63,374 nt of DNA from Methanobacteriota archaeon. Lineage in GTDB: Archaea; Thermoplasmatota; Poseidoniia; Poseidoniales; Poseidoniaceae. The position numbers were made by a program, and so were the translations under genes. Below are positions 7,948-25,547 of this stretch, one piece after another. The first letter of the stretch is position 1. Every line of letters begins with the position of its first letter. Where the stretch lies: positions 1-63,374 of the forward strand of contig PAJM01000036.1 in NCBI GenBank assembly GCA_002706065.1. Direction: 5' to 3'. The notes below the pieces were generated by a model. It searched no databases, was not told where the DNA came from, and worked only from the letters and a program-made list of their open reading frames with translations.

Positions 7948-8631
7948 ATGGCATTCACGGGTGACAAGCGGCTCTACCTTGGTGCAGAGGCAGAAGTTTG
8001 GCGTGGCTCATGGATGGGACAACCTGCTGTTCGCAAGCAACGCCGACTCCGTTCATGGCGTCATCCTGATTTGGACGACCGTTTGGGTCGTCGACGAATG
8101 ATTGCCGAAGCACGGCTCATGGTCCGACTGTACAAGAAAGGACTCAACATCCCTGTCTTGTACGATTGCGACGTCCAAGGACAGCAACTTGTCATGAGCA
8201 ACATTCCAGGATTACCGCTCATCGATCTCCTCAATGACCGTTCGCTTGACGATTCAACTGTTTTGGAGTATCTCCGATCTGCAGGACGCAGTATCCGGAT
8301 GCTGCACAGAGAAGCGATTGTGCATGGTGATCTTTCAACCAACAACATCATTATTACGCCTGATGGCGATGCAGTCTTGATTGATTTTGGACTCGCAAAA
8401 ATCGAATTTGAGACAGAATTGTATGGGATTGATTTGCACGTTCTCTTTGAAATTCTTGGTGCATCCCATCCTCATCGAGAGGATGCTATGGAGGCTGTTC
8501 TCGAAGGGTATGCTCAGTGCGAAACGGAATTGGGTCCTGCTGCAACAACGCCGGGAGGCGACCCTGTTGCAATGAAGGATGTAATCGAACGATTTGATCT
8601 CATTCGGACTCGAGTACGCTATCATGGATGA
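7948..8631 (+). CDS. bud32: KEOPS complex kinase Bud32 (stand-alone, not fused to Kae1)
   Basis: YLGAEAEV, WRHPDLDDRL, EARLM, IVHGDLSTNN, LIDFGL, DLHVL, RVRY end. GGAGG upstream of 7948. Confidence 0.92.
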   Translation: MAFTGDKRLYLGAEAEVWRGSWMGQPAVRKQRRLRSWRHPDLDDRLGRRRMIAEARLMVRLYKKGLNIPVLYDCDVQGQQLVMSNIPGLPLIDLLNDRSLDDSTVLEYLRSAGRSIRMLHREAIVHGDLSTNNIIITPDGDAVLIDFGLAKIEFETELYGIDLHVLFEILGASHPHREDAMEAVLEGYAQCETELGPAATTPGGDPVAMKDVIERFDLIRTRVRYHG

Positions 8632-10696
8632 TGTTGTCCTTTGAGGACTCATCTTGACGCTGTAAAATGTAGATGAACGTCAGAACGATCAACACAATGA
8701 CCGACCATTGGAGGACAAGACTGGAATATGTCGCAAGTTCAGTTCCACGATGAAGCACGTTCATGGTCACTTCTCCATCCTCTTCAACTTCGATGTAAGC
8801 AATCCCTCCTTCAAGAGCGAGTGGATTGACCTGATCGATGGTATCCGAGGTCAATTGTTCGGAATAATTTGTAGGAAGATGCAATTGATGGATTTCCCAG
8901 TCACCGTACTTATCATTGAAACTGAATGGATTGTAATGATCTTTTGCTTCCCAGACAACGTAATCGTATGCCAAAGAGATGTTGCCCACCGGATAAATCG
9001 GATCGAAACCGAGCCATTGGTCACCGGTCGTTCGGTCGTAGAGGACCATCCGGTCGAGAGCTGAAACATTCACTCGAGCAGCGATATGTTGAGAATTGAA
9101 GGAAACCTGAACTATGCTTGCATTGCCTTCATCAACGGGTTGCTCCCATTCTTCGAGAACGCGGTTCTGCTCCGGTGATGTCGATGCAGTCACAACGATG
9201 CTTTGCGAATCAAGTGCGCCTATGGTTCCAATGCGCAACGTAGAGGGTTGCTCCTTGGAGACCATGAGGATTTCAACCCCTGAAACCGACATCAACTCAA
9301 TTGTTTCACCATTCGGAAGGGTTGGAACAAGTACTGTTGCTCCTTCGGTATTAACTCCATACAGAACGTCATCGACAATGTAGAGGGCGATAAGTTCGCC
9401 TTGGAATGAAGTCAGTCGCAGCGATTGGATTCCAGTAACCTGTTGTTGAGAGATGATTTGATCCGGGTTCTCAACATCAAGAATGCGTAACTCTGAATCA
9501 TTTGCTAGCACAAGATAGTTCTCATACAACGCGAATGGAGAATTGAACTGCATCAATGGTTGAGCGACGGTACTGGGATCAAGTGAAGGTTCCGAGACGT
9601 CATGAATCAAAACGATGGCTTCACCGGATTGATTGTCCATCGTCGCCATCCAACCCTCTGATGCTACTGCACCCTGTGCGGATTGAACGCCTTCTGCGGG
9701 AAGTTCGTTGTGCGTTAAGTCCCATGTAATGACGGCTCCTGTGAGAATCAAAATAGCGACAATGAACGTTCCAGTTTCTTTGCTGGTTGGTTTCAACAGT
9801 TTAGCACCGTATGCTTTGAGACGATTGAACAGAAACGATGCGGAATGACGTGGACGCGTCAATACCGTCGCCAAGCGACTGTTGATGGTCCGTTCATCGA
9901 AAACTTTCCACACAGAATCGTTCGTTCGCTCCGTCAATCGTACCGTTAATGCGGCGACCATCATCCCTCCAATGATGTCGACAAACCAATGGATTCCGAG
10001 ATAAATAATGGCGAATGCTGTCAGTATAATGTAGCCCAAAGTCATGTTTTGGAATCGTCGCCAACGACCATCGTGATCGTATTTCCGGAACGTTAGCCAA
10101 ATGGCAAACGGAACGGCAATATGCAGTGAAGGCATGCAATTCGTAAACGCATCAATACGGCGGAACCAATCTTCGATTTCTGGATTCAAGGTGTAGGCAA
10201 TCGCGTCCATATCCTCGACATAAAACCCCGTTACTCGAACGTTAAAAAAGAGATAAAATGGAATAGCAAGGAGATAGACCCAAGCAATACTCAATGCGAT
10301 ACGGTCTGCCATCCATCGGTCATCAAAATAGGTCACATAGAAAATTGAGGCATAGGTAATGAACATGAATCCAGCAATGTAGAAATGTGTCATCAACACA
10401 TCGAGCCATTCTGCTCGAAATGTGTCTTGGAACCAGACAACCAAGTCGCCTTCAATCGCATAGATGTAAGGCGTCATGTCAATGCCCGTTCGAGCCATTA
10501 AGATTCGATCGATTTGATCGAGAAAATCCTTTGCGTTGTAAATCGAGAGTGCGATCAAAAGGTGGAGCCAATAGCGTCGAATGAAGTCAACGAATCCACT
10601 CAGTGTCAACTTGGCCCATGGTGGCTTGAAATACGGCATCAGGAAGACACCTACAGCCAATGCTGAGATGAGCCAAGTGAGATAGACTCCATCCAT
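8600..10696 (-). CDS. PAP2-superfamily (AUR1/IPC-synthase-like) membrane enzyme fused to a beta-rich extracellular domain with a C-terminal TM
   Basis: NCMPSLHIA and IYLGIHWFVDIIGG motifs in the 6-TM N-terminal part; ~330-aa beta-rich region; final TM LVLQWSVIVLIVLTFIYIL. Confidence 0.75.
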   Translation of the reverse strand: MDGVYLTWLISALAVGVFLMPYFKPPWAKLTLSGFVDFIRRYWLHLLIALSIYNAKDFLDQIDRILMARTGIDMTPYIYAIEGDLVVWFQDTFRAEWLDVLMTHFYIAGFMFITYASIFYVTYFDDRWMADRIALSIAWVYLLAIPFYLFFNVRVTGFYVEDMDAIAYTLNPEIEDWFRRIDAFTNCMPSLHIAVPFAIWLTFRKYDHDGRWRRFQNMTLGYIILTAFAIIYLGIHWFVDIIGGMMVAALTVRLTERTNDSVWKVFDERTINSRLATVLTRPRHSASFLFNRLKAYGAKLLKPTSKETGTFIVAILILTGAVITWDLTHNELPAEGVQSAQGAVASEGWMATMDNQSGEAIVLIHDVSEPSLDPSTVAQPLMQFNSPFALYENYLVLANDSELRILDVENPDQIISQQQVTGIQSLRLTSFQGELIALYIVDDVLYGVNTEGATVLVPTLPNGETIELMSVSGVEILMVSKEQPSTLRIGTIGALDSQSIVVTASTSPEQNRVLEEWEQPVDEGNASIVQVSFNSQHIAARVNVSALDRMVLYDRTTGDQWLGFDPIYPVGNISLAYDYVVWEAKDHYNPFSFNDKYGDWEIHQLHLPTNYSEQLTSDTIDQVNPLALEGGIAYIEVEEDGEVTMNVLHRGTELATYSSLVLQWSVIVLIVLTFIYILQRQDESSKDNIIHDSVLESE

Positions 10697-10773: not shown

Positions 10774-11133
10774 TCACCATGCGCCGTGAACATAGGGGCG
10801 GCCATGGTCAGGGTCACGGCGATGAGCAAGGTCCCAGATTCGTTCAAATCGATATATGCCGCTGGAGCATCCGGTTTCCCATTCAAATGCAACAGCATAA
10901 TTTCCAACGGTGCGGACCGATGGCTTTTGTTTAGAATATGCTTCTACAGTTCGGCGAAGTTGCATGCTCGTGTCGTCTTCGTTACGAAGCGGTGCGCATT
11001 TCGCACATGGGCAGGCAAAGCGAAGATCATCGTACGTGACAAGGAATGTTGAACCGTCTTCATAGGTAAGTTCCATATCGATATCTCGACGTTCAAGCCG
11101 ACGCAATTCAAGAGGTTCTTCACTCATGTTCAA
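10774..11133 (-). CDS. DUF971 / GBBH-N-like domain protein
   Basis: LRFACPCAKC, VGNYAV, WETGCSSGIYRFE. Confidence 0.85.
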   Translation of the reverse strand: MNMSEEPLELRRLERRDIDMELTYEDGSTFLVTYDDLRFACPCAKCAPLRNEDDTSMQLRRTVEAYSKQKPSVRTVGNYAVAFEWETGCSSGIYRFERIWDLAHRRDPDHGRPYVHGAW

Positions 11134-11136
11134 TCC

Positions 11137-12153
11137 TCAGATGATTTCCAAATTGGAGGAACTCGCACCATCCAATTGCGATTGAATGGATGCAACGACA
11201 TGAGAAAAGGCGGATGCAGATGCTCCTTCTGGCTCAGAAACAATGCGGTGAACCCCATCGTCTCCACCCCGGACGAAACCAGGATCAAATGGAAGTGCTC
11301 CGAGGAAAGGGACTCCAAATTCTTCAGCCGTGGAGCGACCTCCGCCCTCCTTGAAAATGTCAAGGGTGACACTGAATCGACCTTGATCGTCACACGTTGT
11401 TCGAGCCGTTCGTCCGGCCGGTGCAGCGATTTCAATCTCAGAGCCAGGGGTTCCTTTCCCCTGAATCGTGTAACCACTCATGTTCTCAACCACGCCAAGA
11501 ACCGGAACTTTCAGCGAGGAGGCAAAAGAAATCGATTTCCGACTGTCAAGAAGAGCAACATCCTGAGGAGTGGTTACAATGACCATTCCATCGATATCTG
11601 GTAAGGATTGGGCAACCGTCAAAGGTTCGTCGGAGGTACCGGGTGGGAAATCGATGATGAGATAGTCAAGATTACCCCATTCAACGTCCCCAATGAATTG
11701 TTGAATCGCACCGAGTTTGATCGGACCGCGCCATACGACAGGTGTGTCTTCATCCTCTAGAAGAAATGCCATCGAAATGACCTTGACGCCCAAATGACCT
11801 TGAGCAGGATGAATCCTTCCTGCCTCAACGTGCAACTTTCTTCCATCGAGACCCATCATCTTTGGCACATTTGGTCCGGTAATATCAATGTCCAAAATAC
11901 CAACTTTGTGACCTTGTTGAGCAAGTGCAAGTGCGAGGCCTGTTGAAACGGTTGATTTGCCGACGCCGCCTTTTCCTGACAGAACCATAATCTTGTGTTT
12001 GATCTTCTTTCCGATTTCAGCCATTGCCATCTTTCGCCTCATTTGCGCGTAGGCTTGCTCCATTTGCTTTTGTGCACCAGCGTCGGGTGCTGCGGGTGCT
12101 TCCTCAGGAGCACCGTTTCCCGGGGTGTGCATCGAAACAGGTGAATCGGACAT
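11137..12153 (-). CDS. mrp: Mrp/NBP35/ApbC family P-loop ATPase (lacks the canonical CxxC)
   Basis: [50 protein letters not shown]. Confidence 0.92.
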
Positions 12154-12187: not shown

Positions 12188-12526
12188 TTATTTTTCCTTC
12201 ACAAAAACAAACCATCCACCGTGTGTGAGAGTTGTGAGCAGTAAAGCCCCTACACTTGCAACGATTTGGAACTCCATGCCCGTGTAGGCATAGGCAATCC
12301 CAACTGCTAACGGCAAGCTGACAACGTAGCCAATGGTTGTTGATTTTGACCCCGTCTTCTTCAATCTGTAATCGATTAACCAAAGCAACGCGCCGCAACA
12401 AAACGTCATCAACACCAAGACGATGGCAACACCCTGAAACAACAGATGCCAATCCTTTGCTGCGAAGACAATGTGCAAGACAAAGAGAAGAAGATATGCG
12501 CTCGAGAAAATGACCAACGACCGCAT
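12188..12526 (-). CDS. Small hypothetical membrane protein (about 4 TM)
   Basis: 112-aa hydrophobic ORF with ATG start filling the gap between mrp and the ArsC-like gene. Confidence 0.65.
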
Positions 12527-12591
12527 TGGAGAATCCTTCCTATGCCTTCGAAGGAGTCAAGATTGATAAGATACATCACCGTCGAAATAGC

Positions 12592-12948
12592 ATGCGATTG
12601 CTTTTTGTTTGCGTTGGAAACTCGTGTCGATCTCAAATGGCTGAAGGAATTGCTCGTCATCTAGGCCATGAAGCAGCCAGTGCAGGCACGCATCCTGCGA
12701 CGCAAGTTTCTGCAAATGCGATCAAGGTTCTTGCCTCAAAGGGAATCTCAACCGCTGAACTGCGTCCAAAATCTGTTGATTTGTTCAGTGCTGATGCGTT
12801 CGATATGGTGATTTCGATGGGATGTGGTGTCTCTTGCCCAACCATGCAGATCGACCAAGATTGGGGGCTCGACGATCCAGTCGGGCAATCACTTTCTGTT
12901 TTCGAGGCGACTGCAAACGAAATTGAACGAAGATTGTCTGAGTTGTGA
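12592..12948 (+). CDS. Low-molecular-weight phosphatase / arsenate reductase ArsC family
   Basis: FVCVGNSCRSQMAEG (CX5R), SAGT, SMGCGVSCP, DWGLDDP. Start at MRLLF. Confidence 0.88.
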   Translation: MRLLFVCVGNSCRSQMAEGIARHLGHEAASAGTHPATQVSANAIKVLASKGISTAELRPKSVDLFSADAFDMVISMGCGVSCPTMQIDQDWGLDDPVGQSLSVFEATANEIERRLSEL

Positions 12949-13445: not shown

Positions 13446-16400
13446 TCACTGGAAACCAAATCGGTCATGCCCTTCTTTCGGTGGTTGACGTTGCCGTAAA
13501 TAGACGGCTACACCGGCGAAAAGAGCCGCGACACCAACGACGAGAGCAATCAATGTAAGGGGCAATTCATCTCCCTTCGCTCCAAGAGAGTCGTCATCAG
13601 CATCTGCAACAAAAACGACAAACGAGGTTGGAGATGTTGCATCACCATACGAATCAGATGCTTGGATGAAGATTTCGTGGGCACTGATCGGTGTTGACGT
13701 TCGGATGGAAGCAGTGGCTGTGTAGATGCCATCGTTCGCCTCTTTGTCCAACCCTTGCCCATTGTCGTACAAATTCACCCAACGCTCGGTTTGTCCAAGT
13801 GGCTTAAGCAGACCTAAATCAGCACGCACGAGAAGGATTCCGTCAGCATCCGCAACCTGAATTTCGATAGCTCGCTCCACATTGGAATCAGCTCGTCGCA
13901 ACGGTTCAGTGGTCGCAAGGGACAGCGTTGGGGGTGTATTTTGAACGGTTACGGCCAAATCGACATCGGTCGAACTCGGCTGGAAATGATGTTCAGAGGT
14001 TTGGGTCTTTGTCACGAGTATGCTTGCACCAAGTTCATCGGTCAATCGTACCTTCAAAAGACGAAGGCCTGGCGTCATCCCTTGTGGCATGGTGAGCTCA
14101 CAAATCCAAGCCTCGACTTTGAGGCAGGGTGTTTCCTCTCCACCGTATTCTCGGAGGTCGACAACAACCGATTCCACTCCATGGAAGTCAAGCACGTCCA
14201 ACGTCATCAACGCAGCACCTCCACGGACGACCGTGTCCGGCTCAATGGAGGCACTCAGAATCCGAGGTGCTTGGTTCTCGACCAGAATGGTCGTCGAATA
14301 GACGTCGGTTTCACCCCACTCATCCACAACATCCACGCTGATTGAACGTTCTCCAACCTCCATACCTTGAACAGAAACCAAAGTGGTCCATTGATTATCA
14401 CCAATGGTCTGATCCCCAACGAGGCCACGATCATTCAACGAAACGGTTCCGAGTCCGATCGATGAAAGATCGACAACAACGCTCACAACGTTCCAATCAG
14501 GGTCGTCAACGGTTGCAACCAAATGTGCGGGGGATGCTCCTTCTCCGAACACAAGACCCTCCATGAGCGAAAGATCGAGGACGACAGGTGGATTGTTGTC
14601 ATCAGCAGAAACGATGCTTGGTGAAAGGATAGCGTCGACGGCTTGAGATTCGTTAAGCAGAGCGATTTCTTCGTTTTCACCGAATTCGATTTCGAATGAG
14701 CGCGTTGTACTTGCAAGCAGGCCCGTCAATGGTCCTTTGTGGACGATTGAACCTTGAGCCGTTCCTGAAACGCCGTCACTGTAGACTCCAGTCCATTGAA
14801 TGACGCTGAGATTTTTCGCGTCACGTGGCTCGATGCTTTCCTGGCCAGCCGTGACGGTGAGAACGATCCCATCTTGAGCAAGAAGGCGCACAACGTCGCC
14901 AGTTTCCATTGGTACAGGTGCGAATCCTGCTTCCCGCCCAACCGAAATGTTTCCAAGCGCTTCCTCTACTTCTGGAGGTGCAGGGTCACGTTCGATCGGG
15001 CTGCGTTGCGGGCGCTCGTCTCCACTTGATGGATCTGGACCTGTTTCTGTCCAGACAAGTCGCACGGTTCGGTTGTCCCAGTCTGCGTTTGTCGCTTGGT
15101 AAATGTACGAATCGTTGTGGTATGAACCTACCCCGCTACCGCCAAAGAAATTGCTCCCACCTGCACCGGTCACGTTGAACCACGTTTCGCTGTGAATTAC
15201 ATTGACATCATGTTCGACAAGGGTGTGGTTGAGTTGAGTTCCTGTTTGCTCAATGGTTTGAACGACACCGAACGTCCCTTGAACGTCGCCAGAAAGCGTA
15301 CCATCAACATGGACGTCATCGATTAACGTGATTCCGTCCTCAACACGGTTGTGAAACGTATACACCGTTCCGTTGACCACCATCGAAGAATTTTCTTCCT
15401 CATCTTCGAATCCAAAGGTTCCGTCACCACGGATTACATTCAATTGGTCAACGCGTACACCATTCTCCCATCGTTCCAGTGTTTCGAATTGGTCGAGTTG
15501 GAGGTTAAATTCTGAGCCTTCATCGGCAAGGAGCATGTCTGCTGTTGCTTCAATTTGTATGTGTTCTAGGACACGTACTCCGTCATGGTCAATGGTCTCC
15601 AAGAGCAATAAGCTGATGTCACCGTCGACATCGAATTGTGCATCATCTTCCTCACCATCGACAAGCAATGCACCGAATGCTTCCAATCGAAGACGTTCTG
15701 TGACAACGTTGTCAATGTTTGAACGATTCAGCAGGGCATCGACCACTGTCGCATTGATGGTGGTCACCAATCCATCCTCCTCGAGCTGCAACAAAAGATC
15801 ACCACTACCACGTGCCTGAATGACTTGCGATGTCAAGACGCCAGAGGTAACGGTTTCATTCTTCCAAAAGGATTCGAAATCAAGGTTTAACTCGGTTGTT
15901 GAATCATTGGTAATCTCGGACGTAAGCAACGTTCCATTGCCCAATTCGTATGAATTGAGAACTTCACCGATTCGCTGTTGCCACCCGTTCCCCTCGAAAA
16001 GAAGCATGAACGATTGATTGCCTTCTGGAGTCTGATAGTTCTGTTCAAGGGACCACGCTGTTGTTGTTGTCACTTCATGATCGGCCATCGGCTGGTTCCA
16101 CGAGCCCACAGTAAAGGTTCGTTCGACAAGGATTGGAGATGGAAGAGGTGTTCCGTCATGCCCATTGATGGTTACTTCGATGGAGATGGTATCGTTCCAA
16201 CCAACCATCGTATCAAGAACGACGCGGGCTGTTAACGTCGGTGTGTTCTCGAGGAACGTCGTTTGTATGGTTGGATCCAAATCCAATGAATCTCGCAAAT
16301 GTTCTATGCTGATATCGTAATCATGAGTTGAAGAATCAGCAAACGTCAGGATATAGGCATGCTCGTTGCTCAGCGCAGAAGTACCGCTCCAATCGGTGGT

Positions 16401-16496
16401 GATGGAGACCGTCGGAGAATCCTGTGCAGAGGCGAAAGAGGACATCGGCGTCAGCAGGAGAAGGAACACAAGAGCAACACTTCGAGAACTTCCCAT
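13446..16496 (-). CDS. Large secreted, C-terminally anchored surface protein (~1016 aa) with Ig-like and choice-of-anchor-X-like motifs
   Basis: Signal peptide MGSSRSVALVFLLLLTPMSSFASA; acidic beta-rich body; LNDRGLVGDQTIGDNQWT and LYDNGQGLDKEANDGIYT; C-terminal TM followed by RQR. Confidence 0.8.
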   Translation of the reverse strand: MGSSRSVALVFLLLLTPMSSFASAQDSPTVSITTDWSGTSALSNEHAYILTFADSSTHDYDISIEHLRDSLDLDPTIQTTFLENTPTLTARVVLDTMVGWNDTISIEVTINGHDGTPLPSPILVERTFTVGSWNQPMADHEVTTTTAWSLEQNYQTPEGNQSFMLLFEGNGWQQRIGEVLNSYELGNGTLLTSEITNDSTTELNLDFESFWKNETVTSGVLTSQVIQARGSGDLLLQLEEDGLVTTINATVVDALLNRSNIDNVVTERLRLEAFGALLVDGEEDDAQFDVDGDISLLLLETIDHDGVRVLEHIQIEATADMLLADEGSEFNLQLDQFETLERWENGVRVDQLNVIRGDGTFGFEDEEENSSMVVNGTVYTFHNRVEDGITLIDDVHVDGTLSGDVQGTFGVVQTIEQTGTQLNHTLVEHDVNVIHSETWFNVTGAGGSNFFGGSGVGSYHNDSYIYQATNADWDNRTVRLVWTETGPDPSSGDERPQRSPIERDPAPPEVEEALGNISVGREAGFAPVPMETGDVVRLLAQDGIVLTVTAGQESIEPRDAKNLSVIQWTGVYSDGVSGTAQGSIVHKGPLTGLLASTTRSFEIEFGENEEIALLNESQAVDAILSPSIVSADDNNPPVVLDLSLMEGLVFGEGASPAHLVATVDDPDWNVVSVVVDLSSIGLGTVSLNDRGLVGDQTIGDNQWTTLVSVQGMEVGERSISVDVVDEWGETDVYSTTILVENQAPRILSASIEPDTVVRGGAALMTLDVLDFHGVESVVVDLREYGGEETPCLKVEAWICELTMPQGMTPGLRLLKVRLTDELGASILVTKTQTSEHHFQPSSTDVDLAVTVQNTPPTLSLATTEPLRRADSNVERAIEIQVADADGILLVRADLGLLKPLGQTERWVNLYDNGQGLDKEANDGIYTATASIRTSTPISAHEIFIQASDSYGDATSPTSFVVFVADADDDSLGAKGDELPLTLIALVVGVAALFAGVAVYLRQRQPPKEGHDRFGFQ

Positions 16497-16550
16497 ACCG
16501 GCCTCTTCACGCCGCTCCTCTCTAAGGGTGTTGGCGGATTGCTTCAACAA

Positions 16551-22467: not shown

Positions 22468-23205
22468 ATGCAACAACCTCTTCTCTTTTCGGGGTTGGTC
22501 TGCCTCATCCTATGTTCAGGTTGCCTCGGCTTCGTAAACGATGAAGACTCGGAGACAAGTTTGATCGTTGTGCTCAGCCAGGACCGCATTGTTATCGAAA
22601 CGGTTTACGATCAAGCCGAACTGATTTCGTCTTCAACTCCGACCGTTGATGTTGACTTTTCACAGACGACATCCGATGTTGGAATTGTCACATATGGTAT
22701 TCTTACAGATGATGGCCGTTCCTTCAGCATCGATGCGACTAAGGGTCAAAACATCTCGATTGAGTTCCAACATCATGGCATGTACACCATCACAGTGTAT
22801 GCGATCGATTCTCAAGATGTTCAACTGCAAGAAGTGAAGACTCTCATCGTCGAACAAATCATTACGTGGTCCGAGCTTGATACGGGAAGTCCTGAGTCGT
22901 TGTTTTTTGAAACCACACCAGGGAATGACGGACCTTCACCTTCGTATTTTATTCTCAATTCGACAGTAAGCAATCCGTCTCCGCTTCTCGAAATCGATGG
23001 ACGTGATGTTGATGTTGAGTGGGCCGTTATCAACGAGGATGGCCAATGTTTGGGCCATCGAGAAATCATTGAAAATGGCGATTCATTCACGTGGAACACG
23101 CTGCATTTTACACCCGTGGAAATGCATGAGGTTGATCTCACCATTCATGAGGGACAGGATTCTGTTGATGTCGAGCACAGGATTGAATTGAGATATACGG
23201 AATAA
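22468..23205 (+). CDS. Putative lipoprotein with PKD/Ig-like domains
   Basis: Lipobox-like ILCSGCLG, beta-rich body, HGMYTITVYAID. Confidence 0.65.
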   Translation: MQQPLLFSGLVCLILCSGCLGFVNDEDSETSLIVVLSQDRIVIETVYDQAELISSSTPTVDVDFSQTTSDVGIVTYGILTDDGRSFSIDATKGQNISIEFQHHGMYTITVYAIDSQDVQLQEVKTLIVEQIITWSELDTGSPESLFFETTPGNDGPSPSYFILNSTVSNPSPLLEIDGRDVDVEWAVINEDGQCLGHREIIENGDSFTWNTLHFTPVEMHEVDLTIHEGQDSVDVEHRIELRYTE

Positions 23206-23295
23206 GGCTGAATCATGAAACCAAAATCTTTGGTTGAATGATGACCTGAGAAAGACTTTGTATTGTCGTTCTTATCGTTCAGATTAGGTGAGATT

Positions 23296-23757
23296 ATGAT
23301 AACTGTTGCAGATGTGGAAAACGTGCAGCGCGAATGGGGCGAAGGTATTGTTCGAATTGCTGAAGCGTACAAGCTCGAGGATGATTACACCGCAATCGCT
23401 ACAAAGCACGTTGAAGATCTCTATGCATACGATTTGAGCGAAGTTTTGTTCAAACCAACCATGGCTTCCAAGGAACAATTTCGTCCAACCTTTGAAGGTG
23501 CGTTGTCGTACTTCGTCGCATCAAATGGTGCTTGCAAAGAAGACACTGGGTTTGCAATCAAAGGTTGGACGTCTGTCGAATTTGAAAACTCAGGTGTTCT
23601 CACCAATGATGTCAATGCCGTAGCGATGGGCAACTACTTCTTCACGGATGCAGAGGGAAGCAAAACCAAGGTTGAGTATACCTTTGGATACATTCGTGAT
23701 GATGCTGGTAAGCTGCGCATCGTCCTGCACCACTCATCACTTCCAGCAACGTTGTAG
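23296..23757 (+). CDS. COG4337-type NTF2-like protein, iota-carbonic anhydrase (LCIP63-domain) family
   Basis: Q-x-x-WGEGIV, LY-x-YD, VLFKPT, GALSYF, EDTGFA, AMGNYFF, KVEYTFGY, LHHSSLP. AGGTGA RBS before ATG 23296. Confidence 0.8.
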   Translation: MITVADVENVQREWGEGIVRIAEAYKLEDDYTAIATKHVEDLYAYDLSEVLFKPTMASKEQFRPTFEGALSYFVASNGACKEDTGFAIKGWTSVEFENSGVLTNDVNAVAMGNYFFTDAEGSKTKVEYTFGYIRDDAGKLRIVLHHSSLPATL

Positions 23758-23826
23758 AACGAATCAAACCATATTCTGTAATTTGTGGATGCAGCACTCG
23801 ATCGAGTCCGCTGCGATGACCTGTTG

Positions 23827-24315
23827 TTAGGGACTCTTGGTCGTATTTCGCATCAGCATCGTTACTGATTTTTCCTTATGATGAACGATCCCCACCTCCT
23901 CAAATCGAAAGCGGTGATGGAATCTCATCGATCCCGGATTGGGTGGATTCAAATTCACTTCTGCTGCGACTGGAATGCTGTTCTCTTGTGCATAGGAAAC
24001 GACGCGTTCGTACAGTAGTGTACCAATTCCCTGGTTCCTTTTGTCTTTCGAAACAGCAATCCTATCAACATAAACGAACGCATCAAAGTGGTCGTTGAAC
24101 CATGCATAATTTGGGCTACCGTACGTGGTTCCGGGAGACAAACAAAGAACGAATCCAAGCAATTCTTCTTCTTTGAATGCCCCTAATGAGAAATCGGAAA
24201 TCGCGAGCAGGTCTCTGAGTTCCTGTTTTGACACTTGACCCGTCCCAGGCAATCCCTGCTCGTTGATTGACCAGATGGATTCGACATCATCGTTTGATAA
24301 TGTTCGTGTGTCCAT
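23827..24315 (-). CDS. GNAT family N-acetyltransferase
   Basis: YVDRIAV, RNQGIGTLLY acetyl-CoA motif, EVNLNPPNPGSMRFH. Confidence 0.88.
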   Translation of the reverse strand: MDTRTLSNDDVESIWSINEQGLPGTGQVSKQELRDLLAISDFSLGAFKEEELLGFVLCLSPGTTYGSPNYAWFNDHFDAFVYVDRIAVSKDKRNQGIGTLLYERVVSYAQENSIPVAAEVNLNPPNPGSMRFHHRFRFEEVGIVHHKEKSVTMLMRNTTKSP

Positions 24316-24368
24316 GAACGTCGTTCAACCGTGGAGGTATATTGTCATGCACCTAGCGAAATGATGCA

Positions 24369-25547
24369 TCACCAAAACTCATCCACCTGGAACAATCCGA
24401 GTATGATTCCAATCATGACGATAAAGAAACACAGCGGAATTGCATAGGCTGCACCGAGTGCTCGTGCGTGATTTTTCTTGAGGTGTTCCTTTACGGGGGC
24501 AATCGCCAAAACAAGAATCACTATGAAAAAGAGACTCTCCTCCAACACTCCAAAGCCGATAAGTATCATGAAAAATCCCATAAACGAATAACCCAACGAA
24601 TAGAGAAGATGTATCCCAAAACCCTTCAAAAACTCGAGGCGAAGAACGGCTAATCCAACAACGAGTCCGATTCCTGGGAGGACTGTTCCCATGAATAATG
24701 CGTCATCATCGCCTCCTTCCATTACCGAAAGAACTGTAAAAAGCAAATACAGTAAGGGAAAATAAAACAAAGCCATCGATGCAAATTTGACTGGATCGTT
24801 TGATTCTTTGAGCTCGTTGTAATTCTCGTGTCCAACGACTCCATATGGTACTTTGAACACAGCCTCGCTGGTTGAAGGTTCCCGTTCGAGAATCTTCTGA
24901 GGAAGTGGAACAAGGTTCGGATGGATCACAAACCCAACAAAAACAGCCAACAAAAAACCAAAACTCTCGAAAAGAATTTCGATAGCAAGGAAAAAGTCTC
25001 CTAACGAATAAGCATGTTGAAAGATGATGTAAAACATTGCCAACCCCATGATGGTTGAGTAACCAGCGCTAAACATTCCAATTCTTTCGAATATCAAATT
25101 AGGTTGTTCTTTGTGAGACCAACAAACAACAAAAATTCCAATGAATACAATGGGCATAACATCTCTCAGAATAATCAACAAGAGAACCAATGGACCTGCT
25201 TCTTGTCCAACCCATGAATAACTCTCGAACAACGATCCATCGAAAAGGAAACCGAGAAGGTCAATGATCTCCGAAATTCCATTCATGTTGTCAGCATAAT
25301 AGTACCAATCATTGTAAAACCAATCCTGGACCCCGTGAATGAGTGTAATCCAGTAAACCGTTCCCCAATTCAGAAACATCGAAATTGTAAACAAAACCGT
25401 TGCGAATTCCAGCCTCCGGGTTTGATGATTTGTTGAATCTGATGGAGGGAGAGGATTTGGAACTGCGGTTTGAGGTTCCTGCTCAATCGATTGCGGGAGT
25501 TCTGTATCAGGCTTTGTTGGGTTGATTACGACAGATTGAGGCTTCAT
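24369..25547 (-). CDS. Hypothetical polytopic membrane protein (AT-rich gene)
   Basis: About 9-10 TM segments after a Pro/Gln-rich N-terminus. Start placed at MKPQSV with GAGGT just upstream. Confidence 0.65.
   Translation of the reverse strand: MKPQSVVINPTKPDTELPQSIEQEPQTAVPNPLPPSDSTNHQTRRLEFATVLFTISMFLNWGTVYWITLIHGVQDWFYNDWYYYADNMNGISEIIDLLGFLFDGSLFESYSWVGQEAGPLVLLLIILRDVMPIVFIGIFVVCWSHKEQPNLIFERIGMFSAGYSTIMGLAMFYIIFQHAYSLGDFFLAIEILFESFGFLLAVFVGFVIHPNLVPLPQKILEREPSTSEAVFKVPYGVVGHENYNELKESNDPVKFASMALFYFPLLYLLFTVLSVMEGGDDDALFMGTVLPGIGLVVGLAVLRLEFLKGFGIHLLYSLGYSFMGFFMILIGFGVLEESLFFIVILVLAIAPVKEHLKKNHARALGAAYAIPLCFFIVMIGIILGLFQVDEFW

Follow-up and report, generated by a model that had tools for sequence, protein, structure and literature searches.

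A conserved Mrp-family ATPase lacking the CxxC motif, and a cysteine-bearing DUF971 protein, in Poseidoniales archaea

Introduction

A CxxC motif, bridging a transferable [4Fe-4S] cluster, functionally defines the Mrp/NBP35-family ATPases; it is an essential motif (PMC6345978). Fusions of these ATPases to a second domain, DUF971, are known, and in most HCF101-type proteins this DUF971 carries a CxCxxC motif (PMC7980591). Plastid HCF101 itself lacks the CxxC of the ATPase yet binds a [4Fe-4S] cluster (PMC2805927). DUF971 also occurs as a stand-alone bacterial protein, termed “FeS cluster maintenance protein” by Price et al.; its tie to Mrp was inferred from cofitness, seen in several species of Shewanella (10.1101/072470). 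As of 2025, DUF971 lacked a defined function, including within HCF101 (PMC11838916).

Here, we describe an Mrp-family ATPase gene and a neighboring DUF971 gene in a 63,374-nucleotide (nt) stretch of archaeal DNA, contig PAJM01000036.1 of assembly GCA_002706065.1, from a member of the Poseidoniaceae (Thermoplasmatota; Poseidoniales, or Marine Group II). We refer to this whole stretch as the window. The ATPase has lost both CxxC cysteines, and a beta-rich insert stands in their place. The DUF971 protein, encoded directly downstream, carries four conserved cysteines. The replaced CxxC loop and the four cysteines are maintained throughout the order Poseidoniales. The pair is a variant of the known Mrp–DUF971 partnership, one for which we found no description in the literature searched.

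Results

An Mrp/NBP35 homolog with intact ATPase motifs

The ATPase is a bona fide Mrp/NBP35 homolog whose nucleotide-binding and switch motifs are intact. It matches PF10609 (NUBPL/ParA) at 300 bits (cut-off, 27.1; E = 1.6e-89), in agreement with the family assignment of an earlier note on this DNA. The match is broken by the insert into residues 50-232 and a C-terminal piece. Two NCBIfam equivalogs, MrpORP (320.7 bits; cut-off, 450) and ApbC (204.2 bits; cut-off, 348), score below their cut-offs. Across 30 aligned Mrp proteins, the deviant Walker A motif (as defined in PMC6345978) is invariant at S59-K66 and T68 and nearly so at S67. The D88/D90, W141-G143-P144, and D168-PPG-D175 motifs are likewise conserved in this alignment, and ENMS, FKxGGG, and LGxLPxD, which surround the former cluster site, are strictly conserved.

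An AlphaFold2 model built from a 30-sequence alignment has a mean predicted local distance difference test (pLDDT) score of 84.6 and a predicted template modeling score of 0.81. The best Foldseek matches are ApbC (8zkc), Cfd1 (6g2g), and AF2382 (2ph1), with E-values of 1e-25 to 1e-22. ATPase-type HypB (3vx3, 5aun) is also among the best structural matches, with template modeling scores of 0.87-0.90 on the target. A predicted N-terminal helix (residues ~25-50; 12004-12081, minus strand), conserved order-wide, precedes the P-loop. In canonical relatives, the N terminus varies at this position or is rich in Cys.

A beta-rich insert replaces the CxxC loop

Between ENMS and IFKEGGG, the protein carries 39 residues (G227-D265) where canonical relatives, drawn from a library of 1.8 billion proteins, read ENMSGFICPHCGxxxDIFKxGGG. 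This represents a net gain of ~27 amino acids (aa). Both CPxC cysteines are gone, as the earlier note had proposed from the residues after ENMS. The insert had been placed at ~11361-11469, a range that lies inside the true bounds but stops a few nucleotides short of each end (11359-11475).

We find that AlphaFold2 assigns four strands to the insert (residues 228-233, 239-243, 249-253, and 259-264; pLDDT, ~87-94), in line with the Ig-strand-like character suggested for it earlier. Taken alone, the insert just clears the Big_6 (PF17936) gathering score of 27.6 bits, with 28.1, and the match spans profile positions 13-53 of 83. The same profile run against the whole protein is sub-threshold (E = 4.6e-5). 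Among 25 homologous inserts, 11 match Big_6 and seven match CarboxypepD_reg. Since the Big_6 match spans only profile positions 13-53, the insert is best modeled as about half of an Ig-like/Big_6 beta-sandwich domain. Conservation within it falls on Gly, Pro, one Asp, and one aromatic residue, a pattern that is structural (beta turns and a hydrophobic core) and not that of a metal site. No His/Asp/Glu cluster common to the archaeal inserts and the planctomycete inserts described below is conserved in the alignment.

The whole protein contains a single cysteine, C254, as previously noted. This residue is restricted to the window’s genus; elsewhere in the family, the position is taken by Ala, Thr, or Ser. 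It therefore cannot be a conserved ligand, and we reject it as a candidate for binding a cluster. Orthologs without any cysteine occur at loci L028, L031, and L034 and in protein P0122, as well as in the more distant P0128. No substitute cysteine was found in the Mrp part, and the cysteine of DUF59, a further HCF101 module, sits on a separate protein. The literature searched contained no description of a Cys-free or Ig-insert Mrp. Two bacterial-type Mrps without CxxC (P0174 and P0261) have other, apparently non-beta inserts at the same site; that of P0174 looks helical from its sequence. The loop may thus be a hotspot for replacement.

A DUF971 protein with four conserved cysteines

The next gene encodes a stand-alone DUF971 (GBBH-like_N) protein, which matches PF06155 with 58.2 bits against a gathering score of 22.8 (E = 1.4e-15). 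Its CPCAKC motif (C39-P-C41-A-K-C44) lies exactly where the earlier note had located it. A fourth cysteine, C87, occurs in GCSSG and aligns with the DGH histidine of 3luu, 2l6n, planctomycete DUF971, and the CxxC-keeping fusion proteins of genera g22 and g23 described below. Fusions of genus g24 have neither His nor Cys at this position. All four cysteines are conserved across Poseidoniales. Because G-C-S-S-G stands where homologs have D-G-H, the site is predicted to be Cys4, and not Cys3His, order-wide. The insert, the loss of CxxC, and the DUF971 cysteines are all conserved across an archaeal order, and thus do not reflect chance.

The AlphaFold2 model of the DUF971 protein has a pLDDT of 86. 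Its top Foldseek matches are 2l6n, 3luu, 2l6p, and the N-terminal domain of BBOX1, with probabilities of at least 0.9 and weak E-values. In Poseidoniaceae only, the protein ends in a conserved tail, which reads DPDHGRPYVHGAW in the window and has the consensus DPDxGxPYVHGAW across the family. The unlinked DUF971 versions of other families do not have this tail. It may be a docking peptide.

The conserved start of the DUF971 gene is an ATG 9 nt past the Mrp stop codon. A TTG only 3 nt past the stop, the distance given in the earlier note, is not the conserved start. The Shine-Dalgarno (SD)–like sequence TGAGGA overlaps the stop codon of Mrp, a sign that the two genes may be translationally coupled; their spacing suggests co-transcription.

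Copy number and linkage across Poseidoniales

Mrp and DUF971 are single-copy core genes of Poseidoniales. Mrp occurs in 117 of 121 genomes, with one gene in each, and DUF971 in 120 of 121, always as a single copy, which bears out the co-occurrence that the earlier note had proposed to test. Every Poseidoniales Mrp sequence examined has the insert and is without CxxC. The window’s own genome, which is 83% complete, has only one true Mrp and only one DUF971. Weaker matches in the Mrp search were considered as further copies and rejected, as they are MinD/ParA-like P-loop proteins. A second, canonical CxxC Mrp, which the earlier note had named as an objection to its reading, was found neither in the window’s genome nor in the 121 Poseidoniales genomes.

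The linkage of the two genes depends on the family. Within Poseidoniaceae (seven genera), DUF971 lies directly downstream of Mrp on the same strand in all 57 scorable genomes, a count that leaves out one genome that is too fragmented and one that has neither gene. This adjacency is seen in 0 of 58 genomes of the other two families. Conserved linkage, as envisaged earlier, thus holds for Poseidoniaceae but not for the order. Where the genes are unlinked, they are 119-134 kb apart on long contigs (genomes G037, G039, G076, and G121).

Fusions and canonical Mrps in other Thermoplasmatota

We surveyed a wider sample of 251 Thermoplasmatota for DUF971. It was found in 52 of 53 Poseidoniales, in seven of eight members of a sister family (f4) in the same class, which is probably Marine Group III (MGIII), and in one further genome (G192), but nowhere else. 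In f4 and G192, DUF971 forms the C-terminus of a 460- to 540-aa DUF59-Mrp-DUF971 protein, which is the architecture of HCF101, with a bacterial-type Mrp core. DUF971-Mrp fusions, which the earlier note had mentioned for some bacteria, exist (PMC7980591), including in this sister archaeal lineage. The fusion proteins keep CxxC in two f4 genera and in G192 and have lost it in the third f4 genus, where the DUF971 histidine is also replaced (TDPSPGAGAG).

Elsewhere in the phylum, archaeal-type Mrp was present in 11 of 17 genomes. Ten of these proteins have CxxC (mostly CPxC), and one is unreadable at the site. None of the ten readable proteins has the beta insert. In the remaining six of the 17 genomes, Mrp was absent at the search threshold. 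Within Thermoplasmatota, CxxC loss was thus seen only where DUF971 is present, but DUF971 also occurs where CxxC is kept. We reject, as a rule, strict compensation of CxxC loss by DUF971, as MGIII-type fusions have both CxxC and DUF971.

Planctomycetota insert-type Mrps and origin of the insert

A search with three distant insert-bearing proteins recovered more than 100 DUF59-Mrp proteins of ~383 aa, from sources named as Planctomycetota. All have an insert similar in length and pattern, and none has CxxC. Insert-type Mrp was detected in six of 201 sampled Planctomycetota genomes. DUF971 is present in all six, compared with 105 of the 195 others (one-sided Fisher test without phylogenetic correction, P = 0.027). 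The planctomycete genome G138 has no Mrp besides the insert-type protein, and its DUF971 belongs to the Cys3His form.

When the ATPase core was analyzed by maximum likelihood, without the insert columns, the insert-type proteins fell on two sides of a split that has 99% support in the Shimodaira-Hasegawa–like approximate likelihood ratio test (SH-aLRT). Poseidoniales and P0128 are placed among archaeal/NBP35-like canonical Mrps, while Planctomycetota and P0196 are placed among bacterial ApbC-like Mrps. A single origin for all insert-type Mrps was rejected on the basis of this branch and an approximately unbiased (AU) test (difference in log-likelihood, 76; P = 0.0057), for which the group was defined after the tree had been seen. 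Because the split and the AU test reject one clade, the insert either arose two or more times or was transferred laterally as a segment.

Fe-S genes of the window’s genome

In this genome, sufS, sufE, and the gene for a stand-alone DUF59/SufT protein, which keeps its conserved Cys, form one operon on contig C12 (locus L068, ~23000-25000). Also encoded are an A-type carrier, an Nfu-like protein (sub-threshold), a CGFS monothiol glutaredoxin, and BolA. This Fe-S trafficking set is of a bacterial style. The three HCF101 modules (DUF59, Mrp, and DUF971) are thus all encoded in this genome, as separate genes.

Neighboring genes

We find an order-wide gene order of a low-molecular-weight phosphatase/ArsC-like gene (12526-12948, plus strand, in the window), Mrp, and a gene for a PAP2-domain membrane protein, in all Poseidoniales families examined. 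PAP2 is conserved downstream of Mrp, including at Thalassarchaeaceae-like loci L027-L032, and DUF971 is interposed between the two only in Poseidoniaceae. The PAP2 protein of the window has a long non-membrane C-terminal region without a Pfam match.

In family f3, DUF971 adjoins a Pus10-like gene. At Thalassarchaeaceae-like loci L044-L064, DUF971 lies immediately upstream of a ~470-aa gene ending in ...HSDEGRTxPSV, which we take to resemble archaeal Pus10. We considered the Thalassarchaeaceae neighbors of DUF971 as a functional clue, and judged the Pus10-like gene uninformative. Further along the window (13446-16550, minus strand), a protein of 1034 aa begins with a signal-like segment and ends in a transmembrane anchor, and is probably located at the surface. 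Features of the locus and related loci are listed in Table 1.

Table 1. Features of the Mrp–DUF971 locus in the window, and related loci in this and other genomes.
Feature	Position or loci	Strand	Size or residues	Basis or detail
Mrp/NBP35-family P-loop ATPase	11137..12153	-	338 aa	Pfam PF10609
Deviant Walker A, GKGGhGK[ST] type	11950..11979	-	residues 59-68	
ENMS of Mrp	11476..11487	-		
Beta-rich insert between ENMS and IFKEGGG	11359..11475	-	G227-D265	alignment, AlphaFold2, Big_6
Only Mrp cysteine	11392..11394	-	C254	
Intergenic spacer, ATCTGAGGATTGAACATG	11128..11136	-	9 nt	SD-like TGAGGA overlaps Mrp stop
Stand-alone DUF971 (GBBH-like_N) protein	10774..11127	-	117 aa	PF06155; conserved ATG start at 11127
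CPCAKC of DUF971	10996..11013	-	C39, C41, C44	
Fourth cysteine of DUF971	10867..10869	-	C87	GCSSG
C-terminal tail of DUF971	10777..10815	-		Poseidoniaceae only
PAP2-domain membrane protein	8600..10696	-	698 aa	PF14378/PF01569
DUF59-Mrp-DUF971 fusions	L078-L085			genomes G304, G319, G328, G162, G192, G278, G316, G311
Planctomycete insert-type Mrp	L066, L069, L070, L107-L112			P0182, P0280-P0397 (e.g., P0182, P0381)
Fe-S trafficking loci beyond the suf operon	C17:6484-7014, C12:17740-18249, C44:11764-12132			nearby BolA open reading frame

Discussion

An abundant order of ocean archaea retains Mrp as its only copy without any conserved cysteine, as does a planctomycete clade (there, the sole copy was seen in one genome, G138). 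The consequence of this loss is that either the ATPase has a cluster-independent job or its ligands come from a partner. We tentatively favor the explanation that Mrp and DUF971 form a split HCF101-like Fe-S maturation module, in which the ATPase is cluster-free and DUF971 is its cysteine-bearing partner. The ATPase alone could no longer hold a Cys-ligated bridging [4Fe-4S] cluster, and would probably work as a nucleotide-driven dimeric clamp or chaperone. In canonical dimers such as Cfd1 (6g2g), CxxC is located at the dimer axis. Because of this, the two inserts would sit at the two-fold axis, in the normal position of the cluster. DUF971, as the only Cys-bearing part, would then hold a metal or cluster, either alone or at the Mrp interface, or would dock a client. 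This is the most economical reading of several findings: the intact ATPase motifs and ApbC/Cfd1-like fold, the lack of a canonical Mrp, the single-copy DUF971 with its four cysteines, its place downstream of Mrp in Poseidoniaceae and its fusion to Mrp in f4, the restriction of CxxC loss to DUF971-bearing genomes, the DUF971 of all six planctomycete genomes with insert-type Mrp, cluster binding by an HCF101 without CxxC (PMC2805927), and the bacterial-style Fe-S genes. The earlier note had suggested a split carrier with Cys ligands supplied in trans by DUF971, or a repurposed Mrp, and its interpretation is supported in part.

Several observations weigh against this explanation. Outside Poseidoniaceae, the two genes are not adjacent (0 of 58 genomes), and in Planctomycetota they are also unlinked. 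CxCxxC is an ordinary motif of the DUF971 family and not peculiar to this locus (also PMC7980591). In Arabidopsis HCF101, the cluster ligands (Cys128, Cys347, and Cys419) lie in the DUF59 and Mrp parts, not in DUF971 (PMC2805927). Furthermore, DUF971 is also fused to Mrps that keep CxxC. The need for its cysteines is thus not confined to cases of CxxC loss, and DUF971 is a general Mrp partner and not a specific substitute for lost ligands. The presence of other Fe-S carriers could also have freed Mrp for another role. With alternative carriers available, loss of Mrp’s own ligands would be tolerable, but a change of function is equally permitted.

Some of this evidence is also what would be expected if neither protein held a cluster. 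DUF971 could be a zinc-stabilized adaptor, and Mrp an ATP-driven chaperone or targeting factor that acts on apo-clients or the SUF scaffold, with A-type, Nfu, and glutaredoxin-BolA proteins moving the clusters. The fold and Cys site of DUF971 match the N-terminal domain of human BBOX1, whose homologous site (PDB 3o2g/3ms5) binds structural zinc, a further point against the split module. No Cys motif is present in the solved Shewanella DUF971 (2l6n), which likewise tells against a cluster-carrying DUF971. Several Shewanella species, which may share this lack, show cofitness of DUF971 with Mrp (10.1101/072470). The alternative Fe-S carriers of the genome fit this adaptor as well. ATPase-type HypB illustrates that Mrp/MinD ATPases can work without a metal site of their own. 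Order-wide, however, Cys has taken the place of His as the fourth ligand alongside the loss of all conserved Mrp cysteines. This would be unexpected for a purely structural zinc, even though zinc sites of the Cys4 type are common. We regard a zinc adaptor as unlikely, though a serious contender.

A further alternative would be repurposing of Mrp for a role outside Fe-S metabolism, as a dimeric ATPase switch or positioning factor with the Ig-like insert as a protein-binding surface. Its adjacency to DUF971 would then be incidental or reflect some other shared function. This would account for the absence of conserved cysteines from Mrp and for the order-wide synteny of Mrp with the PAP2 membrane protein and not with DUF971. 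Proteins typically interact through surfaces of Ig-like modules, the genome has other Fe-S carriers, and the lack of Mrp in seven of 26 other Thermoplasmatota sampled implies that it is dispensable in the phylum. Against such repurposing, the association of DUF971 with Mrp recurs as fusion, operon, and cofitness in unrelated lineages (10.1101/072470; PMC7980591), both genes are kept as core genes, and the motifs around the former cluster site are strictly conserved. On balance, we consider it unlikely, slightly more so than the zinc adaptor. Least credible by far is that insert-type Mrp binds a cluster or metal unaided by DUF971, with ligands other than cysteine or with an external thiol. Non-Cys ligation of Fe-S clusters does exist in other proteins, and the insert does conserve acidic residues, in its D-x-x-G turn. 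The conserved insert residues, however, suggest beta turns and a hydrophobic core, and the archaeal and planctomycete inserts have no His/Asp/Glu cluster in common.

The split module can be extended into a more specific model, which is speculative and, in our estimation, has only a slim chance of being right in full. The half-Ig inserts might pair across the two-fold axis into an intersubunit beta sandwich that serves as an ATP-controlled latch in place of the labile bridging cluster, where Cys4 DUF971 docks as the true cluster carrier. Such an arrangement would have arisen or spread two or more times, in Marine Group II and Planctomycetota. If true, DUF971 would be a new class of Fe-S carrier, which would explain its fusion in HCF101.

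DUF971 is the C-terminal domain of HCF101 in plants and apicomplexans, so its properties matter beyond Archaea. In Poseidoniaceae, DUF971 is a separate protein, apparently translationally coupled to Mrp, and the bearer of the only conserved cysteines. Thus, this family offers a clean two-protein system for metal or cluster binding by DUF971 and for the action of the ATPase on it. The recurrent replacement of a metal site by half of an Ig-like domain is also an instructive case of protein evolution.

Comparison with known systems

The Poseidoniales Mrp shares its fold and sequence family, deviant Walker A, switch motifs, ENMS, and FxxGGG with ApbC/Mrp, Cfd1/Nbp35, and Ind1. It differs from all of these in having no CxxC and ~27 extra beta residues instead. 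Stand-alone bacterial DUF971 (3luu, 2l6n, and 2l6p) and the Poseidoniales form have the same Pfam family and fold. The Poseidoniales form, in contrast, has Cys4 instead of Cys3His, a loop after CxCxxC that is three residues longer, and a partner Mrp without conserved cysteines, and Poseidoniaceae add the conserved C-terminal tail.

In Planctomycetota, the CxxC loop is likewise swapped for an insert, with the pattern G-[YF]-x-I-x-G ... D-x-x-G-x-F-x-T-V-x-x-F, in a form of Mrp for which we found no name in the literature searched. Unlike the archaeal form, these proteins have a bacterial ApbC-type core and an N-terminal DUF59 that keeps its Cys, and their DUF971 is Cys3His and unlinked.

ATPase-type HypB of Thermococcus kodakarensis is an Mrp/MinD dimeric ATPase without a metal site, which drives the small, Cys-rich metallochaperone HypA. 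HypB–HypA would be the closest mechanistic analogy to a cluster-free Mrp acting with DUF971, although the likeness is mechanistic only. HypB (3vx3, 5aun) is 28-30% identical to the Poseidoniales Mrp and lacks the beta insert. It serves nickel insertion into hydrogenase, and we saw no link of the Poseidoniales Mrp to HypA or hydrogenase.

HCF101 of the Arabidopsis plastid and Toxoplasma, and the DUF59-Mrp-DUF971 proteins of bacteria of the Planctomycetes-Verrucomicrobia-Chlamydiae (PVC) group, have the same combination of Mrp ATPase, DUF971, and DUF59. CxxC is absent from plant HCF101, as it is from the Poseidoniales Mrp (PMC2805927). In Poseidoniaceae, however, Mrp and DUF971 are adjacent but separate open reading frames, and DUF59 is on another contig. 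The core of the Poseidoniales Mrp is archaeal/NBP35-like (99% SH-aLRT), whereas HCF101 (class I) has a bacterial core. The Poseidoniales Mrp also has a beta insert that HCF101 lacks and none of the HCF101 ligand cysteines, and the DUF971 that accompanies it has Cys, not His, at the fourth site.

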